The notes under the pieces: model-generated
Told to the model about the DNA's origin: nothing
What the model saw: only the letters and a program-made list of their open reading frames with translations
Databases searched by the model: none
In this document: positions 1,445 through 14,587 of the stretch, piece after piece
Numbering within the stretch: position 1 is the stretch's first letter
Layout: each line of letters opens with the position of its first letter
Made by a program: the position numbers and the translations under genes
Source of the DNA: an uncultured Planctomycetales bacterium
Lineage (GTDB): Bacteria; Omnitrophota; Gorgyraeia; Zapsychrales; JANLHA01
Assembly: GCA_964474085.1 (NCBI GenBank)
Contig: CAYYRJ010000006.1
Span: forward strand, 29,514-93,513
DNA: 64,000 nucleotides
Direction of reading: 5' to 3'

Positions 1445-1472
1445 TTGTCAAAATTCTTTAGATATGTATAAT
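1445..1472 (+). promoter_or_regulatory. Sigma70-like promoter candidate (TTGTCA, 16-nt spacer, TATAAT) upstream of the secreted-protein cluster
   Basis: TTGTCA at 1445-1450 and TATAAT at 1467-1472. The -10 overlaps the first ATG of the 1464 ORF, so the real start may be the ATG at 1479 (a leaderless or very short leader). Confidence 0.25.
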
Positions 1473-2858
1473 ACGTGTATGCAAAAATTTATTTTTCGTC
1501 ATTTCGTTTTTGTCGTTGTCGCGATGATCAGTTTATTTTGTTTTACGACGAGAGCAAATGCCACTTTGGATTTTTCCGTTGTCCCTGTCAATGGGGGAGC
1601 GGATCTTCGATTTACCCGCGGGGATTTGGGTTCAAACATCGGTAAAGAAGTTCGAATCCGCGTGACCTCCAGTGATAATGTCCAATACCAAGTTTTTCAG
1701 CAAATCATTAGTCCTTTTACCAATGAACGGGGTGTAACGCTTAATCGTCCGGTTCTTGAAGCCAATGTTGCGCAGGGATCCAATACGGCCGGAATAATTT
1801 ATTTACCAAGTTTTGAGCCTGTCAATGCGGCTGAACAACTTTTGTTTACATCTTCGCCGAGTGGGCAAAGCGACTCTTTAACAATCGTTTATCGTGTGAA
1901 TACGGCTCTATTGTCTGACTCTGGTAGTTTCAATGGACAGATTTTGTACACAGTTCGTCCTATAGGTGGCGGGCAGCGCCAAAGTGCTCAGACGACTGTA
2001 TTTATAGAGTCTAATTCTGATCTGACAGTTGATTTGGAGTCTTCGAATGGGCATAATTTGGTGCGAATTGATACGAGTCGTGAGAGCAGTTCATCGTTTG
2101 TTAATTTGAGTTTTTCCGGGAATCTTGGAGGGAGTGTTAAGGTTTATCAAGAGGTAGTCAGGTATCCGGTAGATGACTTGAATTTGGAATTGGCTTCTGG
2201 TATACTCAGTACTGTCAGTAGTGGTGGTCAGCAAGGTCAGTTGAGTTTTCAGAGCCCGGCTGAAATACCCCGTAACCGGGAGCTCATTTACAAATCAGAT
2301 CAACAGTCAGACTCGTTCTCGGTCAAGTTCTTTTTGGCCCCTGAAAAACTGTTATTGCAAAAAGCCGGTTCGTATCACGGCTTAGTGCATTACACTGTCG
2401 AAACAGAAACGATGCAAAAAGATTTTGACGTTGATGTTGATATTTCCATTGCACCGATTTTTGAAATTATTATGGATTTCCCGCAAGGGCCCATGAATTT
2501 TGCGAATATCTTGCCCGGTCAAAAACCTGTTCTTAAAGAAGTAAACGTAAAAGTCAAAACAAACCTTGGACGGCCGTATTCAGTCATCCAGCATTTGCCT
2601 GATTTATTGACGAATGAGAAAGCTGAAAGTGTTCCTGGCAAGTACTTTATGTATAAAGTTCAAACAACAAGTGATTCAACGGCTGTTAATTCAGCAGTTG
2701 ATTTTGTCCCGGTACCAAAGGGGGACAAGGAAATACTTACTTCAGATTCGAAAGGAAGTCCCGAAGAGTTTAAAGTGTTTTATCAGTTGAGTCCTTTTGA
2801 AGGGATGCATGCTGGAGATTATCGGTCAGAGATAAAATATTCTTTGGGAGAACTATAG
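1464..2858 (+). CDS. Secreted hypothetical protein of about 460 aa, beta-rich, possible adhesin-like component
   Basis: Long ORF. An N-terminal signal peptide (MQKFIFRHFVFVVVAMISLFCFTTRANA) follows the alternative start at 1479. I recognise no conserved catalytic motif. It is the first gene of a run of signal-peptide proteins. Confidence 0.55.
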   Translation: MYNTCMQKFIFRHFVFVVVAMISLFCFTTRANATLDFSVVPVNGGADLRFTRGDLGSNIGKEVRIRVTSSDNVQYQVFQQIISPFTNERGVTLNRPVLEANVAQGSNTAGIIYLPSFEPVNAAEQLLFTSSPSGQSDSLTIVYRVNTALLSDSGSFNGQILYTVRPIGGGQRQSAQTTVFIESNSDLTVDLESSNGHNLVRIDTSRESSSSFVNLSFSGNLGGSVKVYQEVVRYPVDDLNLELASGILSTVSSGGQQGQLSFQSPAEIPRNRELIYKSDQQSDSFSVKFFLAPEKLLLQKAGSYHGLVHYTVETETMQKDFDVDVDISIAPIFEIIMDFPQGPMNFANILPGQKPVLKEVNVKVKTNLGRPYSVIQHLPDLLTNEKAESVPGKYFMYKVQTTSDSTAVNSAVDFVPVPKGDKEILTSDSKGSPEEFKVFYQLSPFEGMHAGDYRSEIKYSLGEL

Positions 2859-2947
2859 TTATAAAATTCTCATGAGAGGAGGTGGATCGGGGAGAAAAAA
2901 TGTTTAAGGTTAAGTATTTTAATGCAAAATTAAGAGAGGGTAAAAAA

Positions 2948-3556
2948 ATGAAAAAAATTATATTGTCTATCGCAGGTGTGCTGGCGTTGTCGTCAGTCGC
3001 TTTAGCTGCATCTATCGGGACGTTTCCGATTTCTGTAATTATTCCGGCTGCAACATCAGTTACGTTTAAAGTAGCAAAAGTTGTTGGTACCACGTTTACA
3101 GATAATGGGTCGTCCAATTTGAACTTTAGCGTTGCCTATAATACAACGGCAAATGCTTATTTAGCCGAGCAGTATTTTGCGATTGACTTGGCGCCGGATG
3201 GTGCTGCATCATATTCGTCAATCACTTTTGGATATTCAGGCCAAACGAATCCTGTTGGACAGACCGATGGGTTAGATAAAAAAGCGACAATGACTCCTGT
3301 TAAAGTCGTTGGGACAGACGAAACTCCTTTAGCGGGTTATGGCGTTCCATTAGGGGGCACTTTACCGACGATTACCAATGCTCAGGTATCCGGTGGTTTC
3401 TTACGCGTTTATGTTGGTTTAGCGACCGGCGAGTTAATTGGTGGCAGCGGAGCTGATGCAGGAGACCCTAAAATCCCTGGATCTGTACCGTTTGTCGCTA
3501 CTGACAAAATTGGTAACTACGGCGGAACCTTGAAAATTACTGCAACCTTAGTATAA
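2948..3556 (+). CDS. Small secreted protein of about 200 aa, pilin/fimbrial-subunit-like
   Basis: The RBS GAGAGGG precedes the ATG at 2948. There is a signal peptide (MKKIILSIAGVLALSSVALA). The protein is Gly/Thr-rich and beta-rich with a C-terminal alternating hydrophobic strand (TLKITATLV), as in donor-strand pilins. The ORF track start at 2882 is probably too early. Confidence 0.5.
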   Translation: MKKIILSIAGVLALSSVALAASIGTFPISVIIPAATSVTFKVAKVVGTTFTDNGSSNLNFSVAYNTTANAYLAEQYFAIDLAPDGAASYSSITFGYSGQTNPVGQTDGLDKKATMTPVKVVGTDETPLAGYGVPLGGTLPTITNAQVSGGFLRVYVGLATGELIGGSGADAGDPKIPGSVPFVATDKIGNYGGTLKITATLV

Positions 3557-3583
3557 GTGTAAGGAAGCGTAAATGAAAAAGTA

Positions 3584-3618
3584 AGAGGGCAGGGGGAAAC
3601 TCCTCGCCCTCTTATTTT
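3584..3618 (+). terminator. Rho-independent terminator candidate after the pilin-like gene
   Basis: Stem AGAGGGC...GCCCTCT followed by TATTTT. Confidence 0.5.
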
Positions 3619-3630
3619 AGAAAGGGGTTT

Positions 3631-4443
3631 ATGCGGTCAAAAATTTTAGGTTTGGCTAGTTTTATCCTGATCAGCTTATTTTCATCGAATGGCTATGCGC
3701 AGGTGATGATCGAGCAGGGCAAGATTGTTATTAAAGCTAATCCAGCCGAGTCAGTTGTTAACACCATTACTGTTCATAACACTTCTAAACAGGCTGCAAT
3801 CCATTTGCGGGCGTATTGGGAAGATTTTGTTTATATCGCTCCTTTTGATGAAGGTAAAAAAGATTTTACAGCCGCCGGAACGGGACCTTATTCCGCAAGC
3901 CGTTTTGTTAATTTTTCACCGCAAGAATTTACAATAAAACCTGGTGGGACGCAAAAAGTTAGTTACGCAATACAAATGCCGGAGGATGCCAAAGGTGGGT
4001 ATTATGGGACTTTATTTTTAGAGGAGTCTGGGGAAAAAGCCACGTCTAAAATCGGCGTTAGTATTGTAACGCGTATTGGATCTTTATTCTTTATAGAATC
4101 AACCGATAGCAAAAAAACTGGATTAATCGATAATCATCAGGTTGCCGGTAATCAAATTACTGCGGATTTTACTAACACCGGAAACGTGATCATGATTCCT
4201 GACTCGACATATTATGTTTTAGATAAGGACGGTATGGTCGCTGACCGAGGCGACATTAAAAAGTTTTATTTACCCCCTGACAAAAAATTTTCGTATAAAA
4301 TTGACTTAAACAAAGATTTATCCGCTGGTGCATACACGCTTATTTCAACATTTGATCTTGGTGATGGCGAAAATCTGACTGATGAGTTGGATTTTGTAAA
4401 AAATGTCGACGCAACGATTGCCATTACGCCCAAGGCTCGGTAG
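3631..4443 (+). CDS. Secreted protein of about 270 aa with a PapD-like periplasmic chaperone pattern
   Basis: Signal peptide (MRSKILGLASFILISLFSSNGYA). The N-terminal domain shows the spacing of conserved hydrophobic, Asn, Trp, Pro and Asp-Glu positions seen in PapD-like or MSP-fold chaperones (ITVHNTSKQAAIHLRAYWEDF ... FSPQEFTIKPGGTQKVSYAIQMPEDAKGGYYGTLFLEE). This is inference only. Confidence 0.45.
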   Translation: MRSKILGLASFILISLFSSNGYAQVMIEQGKIVIKANPAESVVNTITVHNTSKQAAIHLRAYWEDFVYIAPFDEGKKDFTAAGTGPYSASRFVNFSPQEFTIKPGGTQKVSYAIQMPEDAKGGYYGTLFLEESGEKATSKIGVSIVTRIGSLFFIESTDSKKTGLIDNHQVAGNQITADFTNTGNVIMIPDSTYYVLDKDGMVADRGDIKKFYLPPDKKFSYKIDLNKDLSAGAYTLISTFDLGDGENLTDELDFVKNVDATIAITPKAR

Positions 4444-4566
4444 TTTGACTTTTGATCGTAACTAGTTTTGTTATATCGCTGTATTTATGAAATTTTGTTG
4501 TCTGAACAGTTTTATGTGGGAGTGCCTGTTAGGACAATGAGACTTAAAGGGGGCAGTACTTTTGTT

Positions 4567-7410
4567 ATGTTAAAAAAGTTTATTTTAGTCCTGCTTCTTT
4601 TTCTTCAGATTCTCTTGTGCCCCTCGAAGGTTCATGCCGAGTATGAAAGTATCTATAATTATTATATAGAGCTTGGTTTGGACGCTCTGTATGAAAAAAA
4701 GTTCGAGGATGCGATTTTTTATTTCAAAACGGCGCATGCCATTGACCCTTCCCGTGATAAAGCGCGCGAGTATATCAATCTCTCCAAACGTCTTAAAGAT
4801 GAACAATTAAATGGCATTGTTGCAAAATCACCGACGGATAGTTCTTGGATTTCTCTCGAAGGCCCTGATCCAGTAAAAAATACCGACACAGAGCTTTCTC
4901 ATACTGTGGCTCAACAAATGTTGCGATCTAAAATTCCCCAAGGAAGTGTTGTTCGTCCAGTCGTTAAATATGATCCTAAAGCTCCTCTTGTTAAACAAAA
5001 AAAACTTCCTGGCGCTATTATTCCATCTGGAGTGCAAACTAATTCTCTCGAGTTGCGTGATGCGCAGGAGCTGAAACTCGATGATGTGCTTTGGAGTAAA
5101 CATACAAACTTGATTTTAGAGTTGAAAGTTGATGAGAGTGTTATTTTAGTTGGTAACAATATTCAGAGATATCTTTCTGTCACAGAAGGAATATTAGAAG
5201 TATCCCGCATCAACCCGGATCGTATTAAACTTAAAGGTCTAAAGCGCGGCAATACAATTTTTTACGTTTGGGACCAAAAAGGCCGATGGATTTTTAATGT
5301 CCACTGCATCTATACCTCTGCCTCGGAACTTGCAAAATTACAAAAGCTTCAGGAGTCAGACGCACAGTTATTTAAGCTTGAGTATAGCAATAACTGGAGT
5401 ACTCTTCATAGTGGACAAAATTTAGGAAGTATGACCCGCAAATATTTAAACTTTACAAACTGGCTTGGAGTTTTTGGCGACACGCCTTACGGTAAGTTTG
5501 ATGCAGCGGTAAATACTTATATGTATCCTAATTCTACCGAGATTGTCGGGCAAACAATCGGGTTAAGCAATGGACACGTAGGACCTTTTAATGACTTTTC
5601 GCTGCGTGGTTATGACGCCTATACAGGTCTTACGAGTTTGACATTACCGGGTCGATATTTTAGAGGGGTACTTTTAGACGCGTATGCTTTTAAACATCGG
5701 TTGGCTTATTCATATTTTCATGGCCAGGATCAGTCGACAGTGATCTTTTTGGGTTCTGGGGCGAGACAGACAAGGCAGTCATATATTGAAGGCGGTAAAT
5801 TGACATTAAATCCCTACCAACCGACGAATTATTCCTTGAATTATGTTCGTGGTTGGGGGGAAGGAAGGCCTGAGGATTTTGTTAAACGGGTTATTTCAGG
5901 TCAGGTTGAGCATAAAAGAAAAGAAATCCGGCTTGTCGGAGAACTCGCGTCGGATGATAAACATTATGCAAGTACTATCGCATCCTCTTTTGAACGGTCG
6001 AATTTTAAGATGAATTTGAATTTGCGCGATATCGAAAAAGGATATCAGACGATTTATGGGCCGGCAAATGGAACAGGACAAGTCGGAACGCTGTTAAATT
6101 ATTTTTGGAATCCCTCGGGGATGGATATTTCTGGTTATTTAGATATTTATCGTGATCGCAGTTTGCCAAATCCGGACAACCCGCATGGTCTTAATTTTGA
6201 TTGGTCGAATTCTTATAATAAGCAATTGGATCATTTGTCGCAATGGGGGATAAATTTTGCGTATACAAATAACTCGCAAACTGTTTCGCCGCGACAAAAT
6301 GCGCAGTTAGGTGGCATGTATTCAAAGACTTTTGAATTAGGTCGCTTTAGAACAATTTCGCTTTTTTCTGGACCGACGATTCAATGGAGTCGTTATAAGG
6401 ACACGCCAACTGCAGACTTTGATCGCTATAATTTGCGCAGCGGGTTTCGTGCGAATTTGATCCAGAATTTGTCTTACTTTTTTACTTACGACTATATTTG
6501 GGTTCGTGATGTTGCGCGCGAGCAATTCTCGAATCCTGCAACGCTTGATACTGGTTTTTATTATCATTTTAAATTAACAGACGAACTTTATTTAACGTCG
6601 GATATTTCTTATCACCGAGAGAAATTTACATCAAGTCCGTTTGGATTTTTGTCTGGGCAAGATAATGTTTCAAATAGTTTAAGTTTGACTTATCACCCAC
6701 AACCTGGAATAGAAATTTATTTAGATAGTCAATTAAGGCATGTCATGCCACAAAATAATCGGTCATTTGACGAATTATATTTAACAACAGGAATGAAAGG
6801 TTCGTGGGATTTGCCTTTCAAATGGAATCCTTTGGGGGAAATCCGCGGAATTGTCTATAAAGATTATAACGGTAATGCAACTCAGGATGAAGGAGAGCCT
6901 GGAATTTATGGGATAAAGGTTTTGGCCGGTCATTGGGAAACATATACGAATGATAATGGCGAGTATTTGCTGACCGTACGGGCCAAGAAAGTTGCCGTGA
7001 GTTTGGATTTGCGAACAGTACCTCAGGGTTTTGTTTTTTCAACAGCGCTTTCGCGGGACGTTGAAATTCAAAACAATAAAGCTAAAGTCGTAAATTTTGG
7101 TCTGACGGCTAGATCTGGAATTTATGGAGTTGCCTATTTTGATGTGAACGGGGATGGTATGCCAAATCTAGGGGATAAATTTTTGGGTAATGTTGTTGTC
7201 CGTTTAGTCGATACCGGAGAGATAACCAAAACAGACGCCAGCGGTTCTTACTTTTTTGAAAACATTGACCCGGGGAAACACAAAATTCGAATTTCAATCG
7301 GCTCGATTCCAAAAGAATATCTGCCGGCCGTTAAGGTCGAGGACGAGGTTGAAGTCGTAGAAGGAATAACCTACGTTTATAACATTCCGGTCAAACTTAA
7401 AAAACCTTAA
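4567..7410 (+). CDS. Large (about 947 aa) outer-membrane-type protein: signal peptide, TPR-like segment, pilus-formation N-terminal-like (CpaC/RcpA N) segment, central aromatic/Asn-rich beta-barrel-like region and two C-terminal Cna-B/carboxypeptidase-regulatory-like beta-sandwich repeats
   Basis: The signal peptide starts at the ATG at 4567 (MLKKFILVLLLFLQILLCPSKVHA). The segment SVILVGNNIQRYLSVTEGILEVSRINPDRIKLKGLKRGNTIFYVWDQKGRW resembles the T2SS/T3SS pilus N domain. Alternating hydrophobic beta-strand patterns are rich in Y/W/N/S/T. The C-terminal repeats include GIVYKDYNGNATQDEGEPGIYGIKVL and GVAYFDVNGDGMPNLGDKFLGNVVVRL. Confidence 0.55.
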   Translation: MLKKFILVLLLFLQILLCPSKVHAEYESIYNYYIELGLDALYEKKFEDAIFYFKTAHAIDPSRDKAREYINLSKRLKDEQLNGIVAKSPTDSSWISLEGPDPVKNTDTELSHTVAQQMLRSKIPQGSVVRPVVKYDPKAPLVKQKKLPGAIIPSGVQTNSLELRDAQELKLDDVLWSKHTNLILELKVDESVILVGNNIQRYLSVTEGILEVSRINPDRIKLKGLKRGNTIFYVWDQKGRWIFNVHCIYTSASELAKLQKLQESDAQLFKLEYSNNWSTLHSGQNLGSMTRKYLNFTNWLGVFGDTPYGKFDAAVNTYMYPNSTEIVGQTIGLSNGHVGPFNDFSLRGYDAYTGLTSLTLPGRYFRGVLLDAYAFKHRLAYSYFHGQDQSTVIFLGSGARQTRQSYIEGGKLTLNPYQPTNYSLNYVRGWGEGRPEDFVKRVISGQVEHKRKEIRLVGELASDDKHYASTIASSFERSNFKMNLNLRDIEKGYQTIYGPANGTGQVGTLLNYFWNPSGMDISGYLDIYRDRSLPNPDNPHGLNFDWSNSYNKQLDHLSQWGINFAYTNNSQTVSPRQNAQLGGMYSKTFELGRFRTISLFSGPTIQWSRYKDTPTADFDRYNLRSGFRANLIQNLSYFFTYDYIWVRDVAREQFSNPATLDTGFYYHFKLTDELYLTSDISYHREKFTSSPFGFLSGQDNVSNSLSLTYHPQPGIEIYLDSQLRHVMPQNNRSFDELYLTTGMKGSWDLPFKWNPLGEIRGIVYKDYNGNATQDEGEPGIYGIKVLAGHWETYTNDNGEYLLTVRAKKVAVSLDLRTVPQGFVFSTALSRDVEIQNNKAKVVNFGLTARSGIYGVAYFDVNGDGMPNLGDKFLGNVVVRLVDTGEITKTDASGSYFFENIDPGKHKIRISIGSIPKEYLPAVKVEDEVEVVEGITYVYNIPVKLKKP

Positions 7411-7420
7411 TCTAAATCGT

Positions 7421-7714
7421 TTATTTGACAACTAAAGTCCTTAAAACGATTTGTTGATGCTCGCGTACGGTATTGATCGAAGTAAAATTTGTTTCCGAAT
7501 TACTAAAAACTTCATCTGTTGAATTTGCTCCTAGATTTGTCCCCAAAAGCGCATTATTTGCCTTGAGTTGACTGTCGACGTTTAGGCCGATAATCGGTGG
7601 AATATAGACCGAAAGTCTAAACTCTTGGGTAAATGTTCCCCCTGCATAGCAGATTGCTGTTACCAGAATGCTTTGGGCCAAAATGGTGAAGAAGATGAGT
7701 ATCCATCTTTTCAT
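7421..7714 (-). CDS. Small secreted protein of 97 aa
   Basis: Signal peptide MKRWILIFFTILAQSILVTAICYAGG. It lies divergent from the cluster above and is preceded on its own strand by a terminator hairpin. Confidence 0.45.
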   Translation of the reverse strand: MKRWILIFFTILAQSILVTAICYAGGTFTQEFRLSVYIPPIIGLNVDSQLKANNALLGTNLGANSTDEVFSNSETNFTSINTVREHQQIVLRTLVVK

Positions 7715-7733
7715 TTTGCACCCCTTTCTCCAC

Positions 7734-7765
7734 GAAAAAAGCCCATTGCAGCGACTGCAAAGGGC
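7734..7765 (-). terminator. Intrinsic terminator on the minus strand, 20 nt upstream of the start codon of the small secreted-protein gene (attenuator or sRNA terminator)
   Basis: Minus-strand RNA GCCCUUUGCAG-UCG-CUGCAAUGGGC has 10 of 11 base pairs, followed by UUUUUU. No minus-strand ORF lies upstream of it. Confidence 0.5.
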
Positions 7766-8000
7766 TCGTGGTTAACGAAAACCGGTTAATAAATGGTTTA
7801 CGGCAGCCAGACAACCATGCTCATTTTGGAGGTTAGGTTCACGGCTTTGCCCTGGCGCTTTTAAGAAGTGCCAGGATCCCTTGGGAGGGATGTCCTACCC
7901 TTTCGGGTAGTTTGCCTTTGCTAATTGTCACTTGGAGTATAACATGCCCAAACGCGAAAAACCAGCTAGCCTGAAAGTAAATTTTATGCATCAGCGACGG
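7766..8000 (-). promoter_or_regulatory. Candidate structured leader or riboswitch-like RNA with c-di-GMP-I (GEMM)-like sequence blocks
   Basis: The minus-strand RNA contains GGCAAAC, a GNRA hairpin (UACCC-GAAA-GGGUA), GGAC, and later GCAAAGCC. Several further hairpins are present, for example CCUGGC...GCCAGG. It is not a clean match to the consensus. Confidence 0.2.
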
Positions 8001-8112
8001 GGAGTGAAAGCGGTTTCTTTGTTGGACAGGATTTTTGTTCCAGGAGACTTCCGGTTGACCACAGGAGGTATTTTGTCTATAATCTAATACGTTTTATAAC
8101 CTATTTAAATAT

Positions 8113-10033: not shown

Positions 10034-11087
10034 AGTCAACCATTTTGCTAAAGACCTTATGGGGTGGTATCAAACTTCGGCCCGTGACTTGCCCTGGCGA
10101 AGGACAAGGGATCCATACAAAATTTGGATTTCTGAGGTGATGCTGCAGCAAACAACCGTCAATGCGGTCATTCCGTATTACGTGCGTTGGATAGAAAAAT
10201 TTCCTGATATCCAAAGTGTTGCCAGCGCTTGCGCAGAAAATATTCTTAAGTTTTGGCAAGGTCTTGGATATTACTCGCGGGCGCGTAATATTCATGCGTC
10301 AGCAAAAATTATTTGCGATGAATTTAACGGAATTTTTCCGAGTAAAAAAGATAATTTGCGGCGTTTGCCGGGATTAGGGCCGTATACAACGGGCGCTGTT
10401 TTGAGTATTGCCTTTGATCAGAGAGAGCCGATCATTGATGCCAATGTCAGGCGCGTCGTGATGCGGCAGCTAAAAATTAAAGGCAAAGCACAGACATTGC
10501 ATGATAAAAGAATCCTTGAATTTTTGCTCGCGGTTATGCCTTTGAGCAAAAATTGTATTTTTAATCAGGCCTTGATGGAATTAGGTGCCCTGATCTGTCG
10601 AAGCAAAAATCCTTCCTGTTTGGCTTGTCCGGTCCGTGAATCTTGCTTGGCGTATAAAGATGGGGTCGTTGATATTATTCCGGAACCTAAAAAAATGGTC
10701 ATTAAAAATATTTCGGCAGCGATCGCTGTCCTTAAAAACGATGATGAAATTTTTATGCAAAAACGTCTTAAGAAAGGTCTTTTTGCGGATTTGTGGGAAT
10801 TTCCGGGAGGAAAAATTGAGCAAGGCGAAAAAGCAGAGCAAGCGCTTGTGCGCGAGGTTAACGAGGAGTTAGGGATCGAGGTTAAACTTGAAAAAAAGTT
10901 GCCTAAAGTCATCCAGTATTACACGCAGTTTAAAGCGACATTGTCGGTTTGGCTTTGCCGCCCGCTGACTATGCCTAAGACCGATAAAACACATAAATGG
11001 ATCAAGATAAAAGACCTTAAGAAATATCCTGTCTCCTCGGGGACGGCCAAGATTATTGAATATTTAGAACACATTTACGCGCAATAA
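10023..11087 (+). CDS. mutY: A/G-specific adenine DNA glycosylase MutY with a C-terminal NUDIX-like domain
   Basis: HhH-GPD motifs (LPWRRTRDPYKIWISEVMLQQT), a [4Fe-4S] Cys cluster (CxxxxxxCxxCxxxxxC near CRSKNPSCLACPVRESC), and the C-terminal EFPGGKIE NUDIX box. Confidence 0.85.
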   Translation: MTSKVNHFAKDLMGWYQTSARDLPWRRTRDPYKIWISEVMLQQTTVNAVIPYYVRWIEKFPDIQSVASACAENILKFWQGLGYYSRARNIHASAKIICDEFNGIFPSKKDNLRRLPGLGPYTTGAVLSIAFDQREPIIDANVRRVVMRQLKIKGKAQTLHDKRILEFLLAVMPLSKNCIFNQALMELGALICRSKNPSCLACPVRESCLAYKDGVVDIIPEPKKMVIKNISAAIAVLKNDDEIFMQKRLKKGLFADLWEFPGGKIEQGEKAEQALVREVNEELGIEVKLEKKLPKVIQYYTQFKATLSVWLCRPLTMPKTDKTHKWIKIKDLKKYPVSSGTAKIIEYLEHIYAQ

Positions 11088-11146
11088 ATTTTGTTGACTT
11101 TGCTGTGTTTTCCGCCAAAATAATGTTCTTTTATAAAAGATTACTT

Positions 11147-11878
11147 ATGATTTCAAACGAAAAAATTAACGCTTTAAATGACCAAGCCAAAGGGTTGACG
11201 CCGCAGCAGATACTGCGTTTTGCGTTTAATGAATTTGGCAAACGCCTGACTTTTGCATCAAGTTTTGGAGAAGAAGATCAAGTCATTCTGCATATGATTT
11301 CTTTGGAAGCGCCAGAAATCAAGATTTTTACGCTCGACACAGGGCGGCTTTTTCCGCAAACGTATGAGCTGATTGCAAGCGTTGAAAAACGTTATGGTCG
11401 TCCGATTGAAATTTATTTCCCTGATGCAAACGCAGTTGAAAAGATGGTCCATGATAAAGGCATTAATCTTTTTTATGACAGCGTCGAAAATCGCAAGTTG
11501 TGCTGTGGAATCCGAAAAGTTGAACCGCTCAAAAGGGCGCTTAAAAATGCCGATGCCTGGATTTCTGGTCTTCGTCGGACACAGTCGGTGACGCGAAACG
11601 ACAGTCACGTTTTTGAATGGGATAGTGCGAATGACAAAATCAAAATTAATCCGCTAATCGACTGGAGCTTGGAACAGGTCAGCGAATACATTAAGATTAA
11701 TAATGTGGATGTTAATCCGTTGCACAAACAAGGCTTTGTCAGTATCGGTTGTGCGCCTTGTACGCGGGCCATTAAGCCCGGTGAAGATATTCGTGCCGGA
11801 CGCTGGTGGTGGGAAGCGCCAGAGCAAAAAGAGTGCGGCCTGCACAATAATCCTCGACGGCCACCTTTAAAGAAATAA
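11147..11878 (+). CDS. cysH: Adenylylsulfate (APS) reductase, thioredoxin-dependent, Fe-S type
   Basis: PAPS-reductase fold, CC pair (KLCCGIRKV), CAPC, and a C-terminal ECGLH motif. The start was chosen at the ATG at 11147 by alignment to CysH N-termini; the ORF track starts at 11105. Confidence 0.8.
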
Positions 11879-11885
11879 AAAATTT

Positions 11886-12782
11886 ATGAGCAAATTTGTC
11901 ATGCAAAAATTGGATAATTTGGAAGCGCAAAGCGTTTATATTTTGCGTGAAGCTTATCGCGAATTTAAAAATTTGGCCATGCTTTGGTCAATCGGTAAGG
12001 ACAGTACTGTTTTGCTGTGGCTGGCCCGTAAAGCATTTTTTGGCCACGTTCCGTTTCCGTTAGTCCACATTGATACGAGTTTTAAAATTCCGGAAATGAT
12101 CGAATACCGAGACAAGCTTGCGCTTGAGTGGAAACTCAATATGGTTTATGGGCAGAATAAGGCAGCTCTGGATGCCAAACAAACTTTTCCAGACGGCACA
12201 ATTGACCGGTTAAGCTGCTGCAAAGCTTTAAAATCGCAAGCCCTCAAACATACGCTCGCCGGTGATTGGCCGCGTTTTCGAATGAATCATGCGACGGGGA
12301 AATATGAAATCGACAAAAATACCGAACCCTACACGGGCGTCATTGTTGGTGCCCGTGCGGATGAAGAGGGCAGCCGGTCAAAGGAGCGGTATTTTTCGCC
12401 GCGCGATAAGAACAATGACTGGGATGTCGGCGATCAGCCGCCGGAATTGTGGAATCAATTTAAAACCGATTTTGCTCCGGGCACACATATCCGCATTCAT
12501 CCGCTTTTGGATTGGACGGAGCTAAATATTTGGGAATACATTGAACGGGAAAACATCCCGATTATTAAAATTTATTTTGATCAGGGATCGGGCAAACGAT
12601 ACCGTTCTTTAGGCTGTTATCCGTGCACAACACCCGTTGAGTCAACGGCAAAAAATGTGGGTGAAATCGTCGAAGAATTGCGAAGCGGAAAATTTCTTAA
12701 TATTGCTGAGCGTTCCGGCCGTGCGCAGGACAAAGAGGACGGCGGCGGATTAGAAACTTTACGAAGAGAAGGTTACATGTAA
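11886..12782 (+). CDS. cysD: Sulfate adenylyltransferase subunit 2
   Basis: SIGKDST PP-loop motif; the length and conserved C-terminal region fit. Confidence 0.85.
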
Positions 12783-14587
12783 TGGATACTTTTCGCGAAC
12801 AGATGAATGTCGTTATTGTCGGCCATGTCGATCATGGAAAAAGCACGGTCATAGGCCGGCTTCTGGCGGATACCGGTGCGTTACCCGACGGAAAGTTAGA
12901 TGCTGTCAAGGCGATGTGCGCTCGCAATGCCCGCCCGTTTGAATATGCTTTTCTTTTGGATGCGCTTAAAGATGAGCAGTCGCAAGGGATCACCATTGAC
13001 ACAGCGCGGTCATTTTTTAAATCAAAAATGCGTGATTATATTATCATCGACGCACCCGGACATATTGAGTTTTTAAAAAACATGGTCAGCGGGGCGGCTC
13101 GCGCGGAGGCGGCTTTGCTCGTTATAGATGCGCATGAGGGGATTAAAGAAAATTCAAAACGTCATGGCTACATGATGTCTTTTTTGGGAATCCGAAATAT
13201 CACCATCTGCATCAACAAGATGGATCTCGTCGGGTACAGCGAAAAGACGTTTGAAAAAATCAAGGCCGAATATCTAGAGTTCTTAAACGAAATCAATGTC
13301 GTCCCCCAAAATGTGATTCCCATTAGCGCCCGGGAAGGCGACAATATGGTCGGGTTATCTGACAAGATGCCGTGGTATAAAGGTTTGTCAATTTTGCAGG
13401 CATTAGACGGATTTTCAAAACAAGCCGTTGCGTTTGAACAGCGTTTCCGTTTTCCGGTTCAGGATATTTATAAATTTACAGCCCAAGGCGATGAGCGGCG
13501 TATTGTCGCCGGCCGAGTGGAGACCGGAACAATTGCCGTCGGGGATGAGGTCATCTTTTTGCCATCGAACAAAAAGAATCGAATCAAAAGTATTGAAGGC
13601 TTTAACACGCCGTCGTCGTTAACCGCGTTTGCCGGACAGAGTACCGGTTTTTGTCTGGATACCCAAATATATATCCGGCCCGGTGAAATAATGTGTAAGG
13701 TTGCCGAAACTTTACCGCATGTTAGCACACAGCTGCGAGCAAATATTTTTTGGATGGGCAAAGAACCGATGGTCAAAGGCAAAAACTATAAGCTTAAGAT
13801 TGCGACCCAGCAGGTCCCGGTTGTATTGTCGGAAGTTGTTAGCGTCCTTGATGCCAGCGAGCTTTCCTCGATTACGAGCAAAACGCAAGTTAGCCGGCAC
13901 GATGTTGCGGAGTGTATTTTAGAAACGTTAAAGCCGGTTGCCTTTGATAAGGTTGTGGATATTTCTGCGACGGGGCGGTTTGTTATCGTTGATAATTATG
14001 AAATTGCCGGTGGCGGAATTATTTTAGCGCCTATTTTTGAGGACCGTACCGTCGTCAAAAAACATGTCGAGAGCCGGGAACGCAATTGGGAGCGAAGCGG
14101 GATTACCCCAGACAAACGGGCGCAGAAGTATCAGCATAAGTCCGCTCTTATTGTGATAACGGGCCAAGTTGAAACCGGCAAGCAGCGCATTGCCAAGGCG
14201 CTTGAAGAAAAACTTTTTGAACAGGGAAAATTCGTTTATTTTTTGGGTATTCCAAACCAGCCGTCGGTTCGTGAAAATGCCAGCAATGACCGCACACTCA
14301 ACCGTTTTTTGCACGTCGAGCAGTTAGGCGAAATGGCGCATATTTTAACCGATTCGGGGTTGATTCTGATTACCAGCATTTCTGATGCGGATGATGCTGA
14401 ATTAAATATTCTCAAATCTCTTAATCAACCGAATAAAACGTTAATAATCGCGATGGGCGATGAAGAGATTTCCCGTGGGCTGGCGGACTTGGTTTTGCCC
14501 GCCAATATGCCGACGGAAAGTGGGGTAGCTGAAATTTTTGATCTTTTAGTCCGCAGTGTCGTCCTGGACCCGGAATATAATATCTAA
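12782..14587 (+). CDS. cysN: Sulfate adenylyltransferase subunit 1 (GTPase) fused to an APS-kinase-like C-terminal domain (CysNC); the kinase domain looks degenerate
   Basis: G1 motif [17 protein letters not shown], and NKMD. In the C-terminal domain the Walker A is GQVETGKQ rather than GLSGSGKST, and the DGD and FISP motifs are missing. Confidence 0.85.

Follow-up and report, generated by a model that had tools for sequence, protein, structure and literature searches.

Chaperone-usher pili have been studied mainly in Proteobacteria and are classified by the sequence of the usher, whose hallmarks are a match to PF00577, a 24-strand barrel, an internal plug, an N-terminal chaperone-binding domain and two C-terminal beta-sandwiches. 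Their subunits have an incomplete immunoglobulin (Ig) fold, in which the G strand is missing, together with an N-terminal donor strand; in P pili, PapH is the terminator subunit. The closest known counterparts of the locus described here are the alternate (class 5 or alpha) pili, i.e., CFA/I (CfaABCE), CS1, the Burkholderia cable pilus and the E. coli common pilus (EcpA-E). The locus comprises five genes, A to E, at positions 1464-7714 of a 64,000-nucleotide stretch of contig CAYYRJ010000006.1 (hereafter the window) from an uncultured bacterium of the phylum Omnitrophota. We hold with moderate confidence that it encodes a very divergent pathway of the chaperone-usher type, by which a surface fibre or adhesin made of protein would be assembled on the Omnitrophota outer membrane. 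What the data establish is how C folds and how D is built, a conserved gene order, a riboswitch and the coding status of E.

Like the alternate pili, the locus is a compact operon with one chaperone, a major subunit, an outer-membrane assembly protein and a larger multi-domain subunit, and both ends of the presumed major subunit B recall CfaB: its FTVSATVP-like N-terminal strand resembles ITVTASVDP of CfaB, and also the CfaB donor strand VEKNITVTASVDP, and its C-terminus GNYGGTLKITATL resembles GNYSGVVSLVMTL of CfaB. Unlike CfaC, EcpC and other ushers, however, the assembly protein D has no sequence similarity to the family and no plug, starts with tetratricopeptide repeat (TPR) and pil_N domains, has about 26 strands and ends in Cna-B-type domains. 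The body of B (about 180 residues) has no profile match to class-5 pilins, A is built from three equal repeats whereas its counterparts combine an adhesin domain with a pilin domain, a further gene encodes the mini-protein E under control of a riboswitch, and the host belongs to Omnitrophota, not to Proteobacteria. Compared with the type 1 (Fim) and P (Pap) pili, neither D nor B shows detectable sequence homology. The genes lie as follows.

1464-2858, plus strand: gene A, from the list of open reading frames; a secreted protein of 464 residues, candidate tip or adhesin subunit
2945-3556 from its ATG (reading frame open from 2882), plus strand: gene B, a secreted protein of 203 residues, presumed major structural subunit
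3631-4443, plus strand: gene C, 270 residues, predicted periplasmic PapD-like two-domain chaperone
4567-7410 (reading frame open from 4468), plus strand: gene D, 947 residues, usher-like outer-membrane protein
7421-7714, minus strand: gene E, a 97-residue precursor of a secreted protein of about 70 residues, convergent with D

An earlier reading made from the letters alone (the sequence-only reading) had placed five signal-peptide genes without housekeeping identity at 1464-7714, and the reading frames were found where it put them. By inspection, all five products have a Sec-type N-terminus, i.e., a basic n-region, a hydrophobic core and an AxA-type site, with cleavage predicted, from A to E, after ANA, ALA, GYA, VHA and CYA, so that the mature proteins would begin with T, A, Q, E and G. 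That reading had called the small gene divergent, and here it was mistaken: E runs towards D, tail to tail, and their stop codons are separated by 10 nucleotides in the window (median 10, range -28 to 886 nucleotides, across loci). As it had anticipated, searches of Pfam and NCBIfam returned no confident whole-family match for any of the five proteins, only domain-level or sub-threshold matches. Its further suggestion, that this may be an undescribed or very divergent surface assembly system, agrees with the literature searched, which holds no description of it: in full-text searches no paper connected Omnitrophota with PapD or with chaperone-usher systems, and none tied riboswitches for cyclic di-GMP (c-di-GMP) to chaperone-usher systems, the two being mentioned together only in passing in two reviews. 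Omnitrophota genomics discusses attachment in terms of type-4a/type IV and Tad pili and of giant proteins or reading frames (PMC10066038), and in two broad genomics papers on the phylum, that one included, the terms usher, fimbria, c-di-GMP and riboswitch do not occur.

By its modelled fold, C is a PapD-superfamily chaperone. The model (alignment of 44 homologues; predicted local distance difference test, pLDDT, 91.8; predicted template-modelling score 0.81) has two beta-sandwich domains, and a flexible loop at residues 133-147 precedes a strand, 148-157, that carries an invariant R148-x-G150 (R148-I-G150 in the window). The locus therefore contains what a chaperone-usher pathway should contain, a periplasmic, two-domain, Ig-fold chaperone of PapD type. 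For comparison we used the chaperones of E. coli K-12 and those of seven class-5 ('alternate') chaperone-usher loci from plasmids, all profiles being stripped of signal peptides. In hhalign, mature C reached a probability of only 10% with FimC-type chaperones and of 84.6% with CfaA-type chaperones (E-value 6.9e-6, 132 columns); as a calibration, the FimC-type and CfaA-type profiles find each other at 95% (E-value 2e-8). The best match of the C profile among PDB sequences was the chaperone EcpB (E-value 0.06), with R148-I-G150 of C aligned to R-I-G of EcpB. Since the profile link appears with class-5 chaperones only, C is probably a distant homologue of the alternate-class chaperones. The PapD-like character that the sequence-only reading had given to the 270-residue protein is thus upheld by both the model and the CfaA-type match.

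The product of D can be divided into four parts.

4627-4818, plus strand (D residues 21-84): TPR-like helical hairpins; helices in the model, Pfam TPR_2 match at residues 32-62 (E-value 8e-4)
5113-5310, plus strand (D residues 183-248): small, predicted periplasmic beta domain like the N-terminal domain of Tad/CpaC secretins (PF13629); strands in the model
5374-6861, plus strand (D residues 270-765): transmembrane beta-barrel of about 26 strands, as modelled
6874-7398, plus strand (D residues 770-944): two C-terminal Cna-B/SdrD-B beta-sandwiches; Pfam SdrD_B

The model, built from 17 sequences (pLDDT 79), runs from the helices of residues 21-84 through a disordered linker to the beta domain at 183-248, and then through a helix to the strands of 270-765 and the two beta-sandwiches. 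The strands form an uninterrupted series of about 26, all long and with pLDDT mostly 80-95, and the longest loop between them is 18 residues, so that the modelled barrel has no plug-sized insertion. SdrD_B (PF17210) matches two C-terminal stretches with 51.7 bits against a cut-off of 29.7, which establishes membership at the level of the domain only, and the same region has a PDB sequence match to UafA. The match to PF13629 (T2SS-T3SS_pil_N; residues 184-241, E-value 0.01) is below the cut-off, and precomputed matches to this family exist in four homologues. Pfam and the model thus agree with the sequence-only reading of D as a TPR-like segment, a CpaC/RcpA-like N-domain, a barrel core and two Cna-B-like domains.

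When the model of D was compared with PDB structures by Foldseek, ranks 1-11 were full-length FimD and PapC, with E-values from 2.6e-20 to 2.6e-14 over about 770-816 columns, followed by SdrD (1.6e-12) and by other barrels (about 1e-8). Because the isolated FimD barrel scores only 1.1e-8, the usher signal in D comes from the co-linear order of a barrel and two C-terminal sandwiches and not from the barrel itself. Like the Tad/Flp secretins CpaC and RcpA, D weakly matches PF13629, the 'pilus formation protein N-terminal region'; unlike them, it has no secretin domain in Pfam and is modelled as a monomeric barrel, and the locus holds no Tad ATPase or platform genes, so that D does not qualify as a secretin.

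If these genes form a functional unit, they should be inherited together. A profile of C scanned over one genome per GTDB species gave matches in 95 species, and the 80 loci among the matches listed come nearly all from Omnitrophota metagenome-assembled genomes (MAGs), with a few other labels. In total 83 related loci were examined; A, B, C and D were all detectable in 70, of which 67 have them in the order A-B-C-D and the remaining three have copies of B upstream of A. The protein collection contains 17 homologues of D, all unnamed, and three of the contigs that carry them show the identical five-gene arrangement; in each, the small reverse gene is preceded by a c-di-GMP-I-type aptamer. In one of the three, the distant locus L001, where the D homologue is 29% identical and the neighbours are wholly different, the arrangement of the module is the same. 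For the riboswitch and E, 69 loci could be assessed, those whose sequence includes the 3' end of D and continues for 700 nucleotides or more: 65 have the riboswitch, 65 an E-like reading frame and 64 both. The genes that flank the module in the window (HtrA-like protease, HAD, NAD kinase, CbiX and MutY) are common to only 5-6 loci. Because the flanks vary while A-B-C-D and the riboswitch with E persist, the latter are the conserved unit, and the clustering of A-B-C-D is far beyond chance. Clustered, co-inherited genes for chaperone, usher and subunits are a mark of chaperone-usher systems, and the 67 of 70 loci in variable surroundings show that mark; gene order, which the sequence-only reading had proposed to check in other genomes, is kept in dozens of species.

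The protease gene just upstream of A was considered as an analogue of DegP and rejected, since in no more than 5 of 59 loci is an HtrA-like gene the immediate upstream neighbour of A. Several loci carry taxonomic labels other than Omnitrophota. One, on an 8-kb contig (JAIWAR010000056.1), is binned as a Methanosarcinales archaeon and is probably mis-binned Omnitrophota; another (DYOU01000007.1) is labelled Ca. Elulimicrobium, another candidate phylum per NCBI; many others are labelled 'uncultured Planctomycetales'. A contig from a sister MAG (CAYNSM010000044.1) has about 89% nucleotide identity to the window over 12 kb and is 100% identical to it over about 1.1 kb (window 6856-7950), a tract that reaches from the Cna-B end of D across the whole of E to the riboswitch. 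This tract would be accounted for either by recent recombination between the two lineages or by a MAG region that is chimeric or co-assembled.

The presumed subunits are orphans at the level of sequence. In A, a domain of about 140 residues occurs three times in tandem (34-186, 187-330 and 331-464), and hhalign on slices of the alignment finds the repeats in each other with probabilities of 99.2%, 99.3% and 96.8% (E-values 1e-19, 4e-20 and 3e-10). Neither the 34-member profile of A nor the family profile of B matched anything in Pfam or among PDB sequences, the relatives of B are uncharacterized, unnamed Omnitrophota proteins only, and with the profiles of A, B and E the best matches in PDB and Pfam were nanobody or Fab chains, i.e., nothing meaningful. 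Moderate hhalign scores of B against A and against FimA-type pilins, obtained with whole alignments, came from the signal peptides and were gone after trimming. What the three proteins have in common lies at their ends. Mature B starts with GTFPISVIIPAATSV and finishes with GNYGGTLKITATLV, directly at the stop codon; a GxYxGxhxhxh strand (h, hydrophobic) closes B and each domain of A; all three proteins stop right after a beta-strand-like alternating segment; and their mature N-termini have a common h-x-h-S-h-x-h-P motif. For the donor-strand pilin character that the sequence-only reading proposed for the 203-residue protein, support comes only from motifs at its two ends. A lies upstream of B in nearly all related loci. 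Eight related loci have more than one B-like reading frame, as tandem paralogues, and of all coding stretches B differs most between the window and the sister contig (82-83% nucleotide identity, against about 89% overall). Because of these paralogues and of this divergence between sister genomes, B behaves, as judged from its sequence, like a surface protein or antigen.

The best sigma-70-like promoter match near the operon (1445-1472, plus strand; TTGTCA-16-TATAAT, 11/12) overlaps the first ATG of gene A, and the true start may therefore be the ATG at 1479 (MQKFIF...). The A-D operon may have its own promoter, merely 25 nucleotides past the end of the HtrA-like gene.

The smallest gene, E, is by its pattern of substitution a real gene under purifying selection: between two related loci (L002 and L007) there are 25 nucleotide differences, and the codon changes are 20 synonymous and three non-synonymous, which argues that the protein itself is selected. 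In its product, a variable linker separates the N-terminal strand, FRLSVYIPPIIGLNV, from a C-terminal hairpin, VREHQQIVLRTLVVK. The family, with about 70 members found only behind a c-di-GMP-I riboswitch, has the strand consensus T-x-S-F-x-L-S-V-T-I-P-A-h-h-G-h-N immediately after the signal peptide and the hairpin consensus V-R-N-N-x-x-V-x-L-x-T-I-V-V. When mature B proteins were searched with a profile of E without the signal peptide, 67 of 84 were matched within their first 20-35 residues, with a best E-value of 9e-5; in the controls, the best values were 0.25 among 420 shuffled sequences and 0.77 for reversed ones. Likewise hhalign aligns residues 1-24 of E to residues 26-49 of B (E-value 1.5e-4). 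One public source labels E 'Na+/phosphate symporter', which is certainly a mis-annotation of a 97-residue secreted protein. Another locus (L059) has a second riboswitch (its positions 5473-5575, minus strand) with an E-like mini-reading frame (5285-5473, minus strand) about 1.3 kb past the first, downstream of a TPR gene.

Control of surface appendages by c-di-GMP riboswitches is established elsewhere: examples are the Cd1/flgB and pilA1 leaders of Clostridioides difficile and the Vc1/gbpA leader of Vibrio cholerae. The leader of E resembles these in that a c-di-GMP-I aptamer, followed by an intrinsic terminator, leads a gene whose product is secreted or exposed at the surface, and differs from them in its target, a mini-subunit of a chaperone-usher-like system that is transcribed convergently into the assembly operon. 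Its elements are as follows.

7981-8008, minus strand: possible promoter ahead of the riboswitch, TTCACT-16-TAAAAT, which matches the consensus only weakly
7799-7926, minus strand: predicted c-di-GMP-I riboswitch aptamer in the 5' leader of E; Rfam RF01051
about 7733-7768, minus strand: intrinsic-terminator hairpin and U-run between the aptamer and the start of E (expression platform), from sequence, terminator scan and folding

By score, structure and position in a 5' leader, the aptamer of the window is a predicted c-di-GMP-I riboswitch. It matches RF01051 with 39.8 bits (gathering threshold 35) over the full model, orthologous loci reach up to 78.6 bits, and a covariance model that we built from nine aptamers gives it 93 bits and places an aptamer on the opposite strand just past D in most loci. 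In the window, the leader of E reads aptamer, short conserved hairpin, free-standing terminator, purine-rich ribosome-binding site and ATG. The short hairpin (CCGUAAC...GUUyCGUUAA, window 7794-7735, minus strand) recurs in many distant loci between the aptamer and the hairpin that terminates transcription or sequesters the Shine-Dalgarno sequence. The sequence-only reading took the leader RNA as a sign of regulated expression of the locus, which is right in that a riboswitch is present and wrong in its reach, since the riboswitch precedes E only and not the four-gene operon.

The direction of the response we infer from other loci. In six of them the Shine-Dalgarno sequence of E begins 3-8 nucleotides after the aptamer and a UUCUUU anti-Shine-Dalgarno element lies just 5' of it; closing of the outer helix would hide the ribosome-binding site, and these six leaders are therefore predicted to follow an OFF design for E. 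Another locus (L057) has a second c-di-GMP-I aptamer (its positions 5590-5708, plus strand) ahead of gene A, with a terminator that overlaps the 3' strand of the aptamer, a predicted ON design; in the same locus the usual riboswitch before E is also present, followed by two tandem terminators. Together, the six OFF-type leaders and this ON-type leader suggest, for those loci and not from the window, that high c-di-GMP raises the assembly machinery and lowers E. In L001, the most divergent locus, the aptamer (11022-11147, minus strand) is best described as the c-di-GMP-I-GGC variant (RF03167; 55.3 bits against a gathering threshold of 59, with a large insertion) and might have an altered ligand specificity.

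If the locus is a chaperone-usher-type pathway, A, B and E would be exported via Sec and captured in the periplasm by C. The part of C that binds them would probably be its long G1-like strand, the one with the invariant R-x-G, and its partner would be the strand at the C-terminus of each of the three. C would then hand the subunits to D, and a fibre would be polymerized and extruded through D, with B as the repeating subunit and A, with its three tandem domains, as the distal or adhesive component; donor-strand polymerization and these roles are inferred. E has a B-like N-terminal strand and almost no body to accept a next subunit, which makes it a candidate chain terminator, cap or anchor; it may otherwise compete for the chaperone, and c-di-GMP would in these cases tune the length or number of fibres. 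Compared with the terminator PapH, E is far smaller than any pilin (about 70 residues), and it is regulated by a riboswitch and not by stoichiometry. We regard such a c-di-GMP-set role for E as tentative and rather doubtful. Taken as a whole, the fullest version of the model is unlikely: a phylum-wide branch of the pathway in which polymers of B with A at the tip leave the cell through an usher analogue that has about 26 strands and no plug, E ends or caps their growth, c-di-GMP shuts E off, and the fibre could attach the bacteria to host cells.

Several results weigh against a chaperone-usher pathway. A Pfam search of D gave no match to PF00577, and hhalign found no relationship to ushers, with probabilities of 0.9% against those of E. 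coli and 8% against those of class 5. D has no plug-sized insertion and about 26 strands, not 24, and TPR and pil_N domains stand in place of the usher N-terminal domain. D is thus usher-like in layout yet fails to show several of the features by which ushers are recognized; of the usher topology proposed in the sequence-only reading, the barrel followed by two sandwiches stood, with FimD and PapC ranked first; D lacks a plug, an usher N-domain and sequence homology to ushers. Among the subunits, neither B nor the A domains have significant profile similarity to FimA-type or CfaB-type pilins except in the 15-residue C-terminal strand, which is the sole signal between B and the CfaB type (hhalign E-value 0.014). 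Because the FimA-type and CfaB-type profiles miss each other in the same hhalign test, this comparison has little power. Moreover, the tandem domains of A demonstrate that the common N-terminal strand can be an ordinary strand within a domain and need not be a donor strand. Finally, a thermodynamic model of 62 E leaders, based on base-pair probabilities and accessibility of the Shine-Dalgarno sequence, gave no consistent direction of the response, with 9 leaders on either side.

Other explanations were weighed as well. D might tether an outer-membrane-anchored surface layer or envelope scaffold through its periplasmic TPR and pil_N domains, in the manner of Deinococcus SlpA or OmpM, with A and B forming sheets and C acting as a holdase. 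Against this, Pfam finds no SLH or coiled-coil domain in D, Foldseek clearly favours full-length ushers, a two-domain chaperone of the PapD type is characteristically tied to fibre assembly, and a c-di-GMP-controlled mini-subunit is more in keeping with an appendage that can be induced than with a constitutive layer, so that we consider a surface layer improbable. A large barrel could also serve the uptake of nutrients or other ligands, D being a gated TonB-dependent or SusC-type transporter, A and B its binding proteins and C an accessory Ig-fold protein. Against such a transporter, D has no match to Plug (PF07715) or TonB_dep_Rec in Pfam and no recognizable TonB box, its likeness to FhuA is generic barrel similarity only, A and B are not lipoproteins as judged by their AxA cleavage sites, a pair of Cna-B domains at the C-terminus is foreign to TonB-dependent receptors, and a PapD-type chaperone has no place in such a system; D does not qualify as a TonB-dependent receptor, and uptake is very improbable.

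The fold of C by itself would allow a further relationship, to the Gram-positive surface complexes of WxL proteins and their interacting proteins (WxLIP; DUF916/DUF3324), in which a WxLIP-like C would bind the wall and its partners. Yet there was no WxLIP_PGBD match above the cut-off, no WxL-domain or LPXTG protein in the locus by Pfam and NCBIfam, and no C-terminal membrane anchor on C; the outer-membrane barrel implies a diderm, and pilus chaperones align to both domains of C over 167-187 residues, compared with 159 for WxLIP. Such a kinship is likewise very improbable. The remaining alternative concerns only the riboswitch, whose main effect may be antisense: transcripts that it lets pass would converge on the 3' end of D and lower expression of the usher, with the E peptide secondary. 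The stop codons of D and E, with their median spacing of 10 nucleotides and, by a terminator scan of the window, no terminator between them, make antisense interference possible as an additional effect. As the principal function of the riboswitch it is quite improbable, since the conserved signal peptide and motifs of E and its excess of synonymous changes point to selection on the protein; the two mechanisms are not exclusive.

A chaperone-usher-type pathway that keeps the chaperone fold and the domain order of the usher without usher signatures or a plug would extend the range of this mode of assembly, and a wide barrel without a plug raises the question of gating. Omnitrophota are uncultured nanobacteria, and the module, present in at least 95 species-level genomes, is a candidate adhesive organelle; if the fullest version of the model holds, the fibre could serve host-cell attachment in ultra-small, possibly host-dependent bacteria, and E would be a riboswitch-gated chain terminator of pilus length. 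The tight coupling of a c-di-GMP-I riboswitch to a secreted mini-protein of 70 residues suggests a way in which fibre length might be controlled post-transcriptionally by a second messenger, and the orphan families A, B, D and E gain a provisional functional context.

Downstream of the module, the window contains a sulfate-assimilation block (11105-14587, plus strand), with two genes of the phosphoadenosine phosphosulfate (PAPS) reductase family followed by a reading frame of 601 residues. The block is housekeeping context and is syntenic with the closest relatives only; in one of these (L002), the counterpart of the 601-residue frame has GTP_EFTU and APS_kinase domains, as in CysN/C-like proteins.

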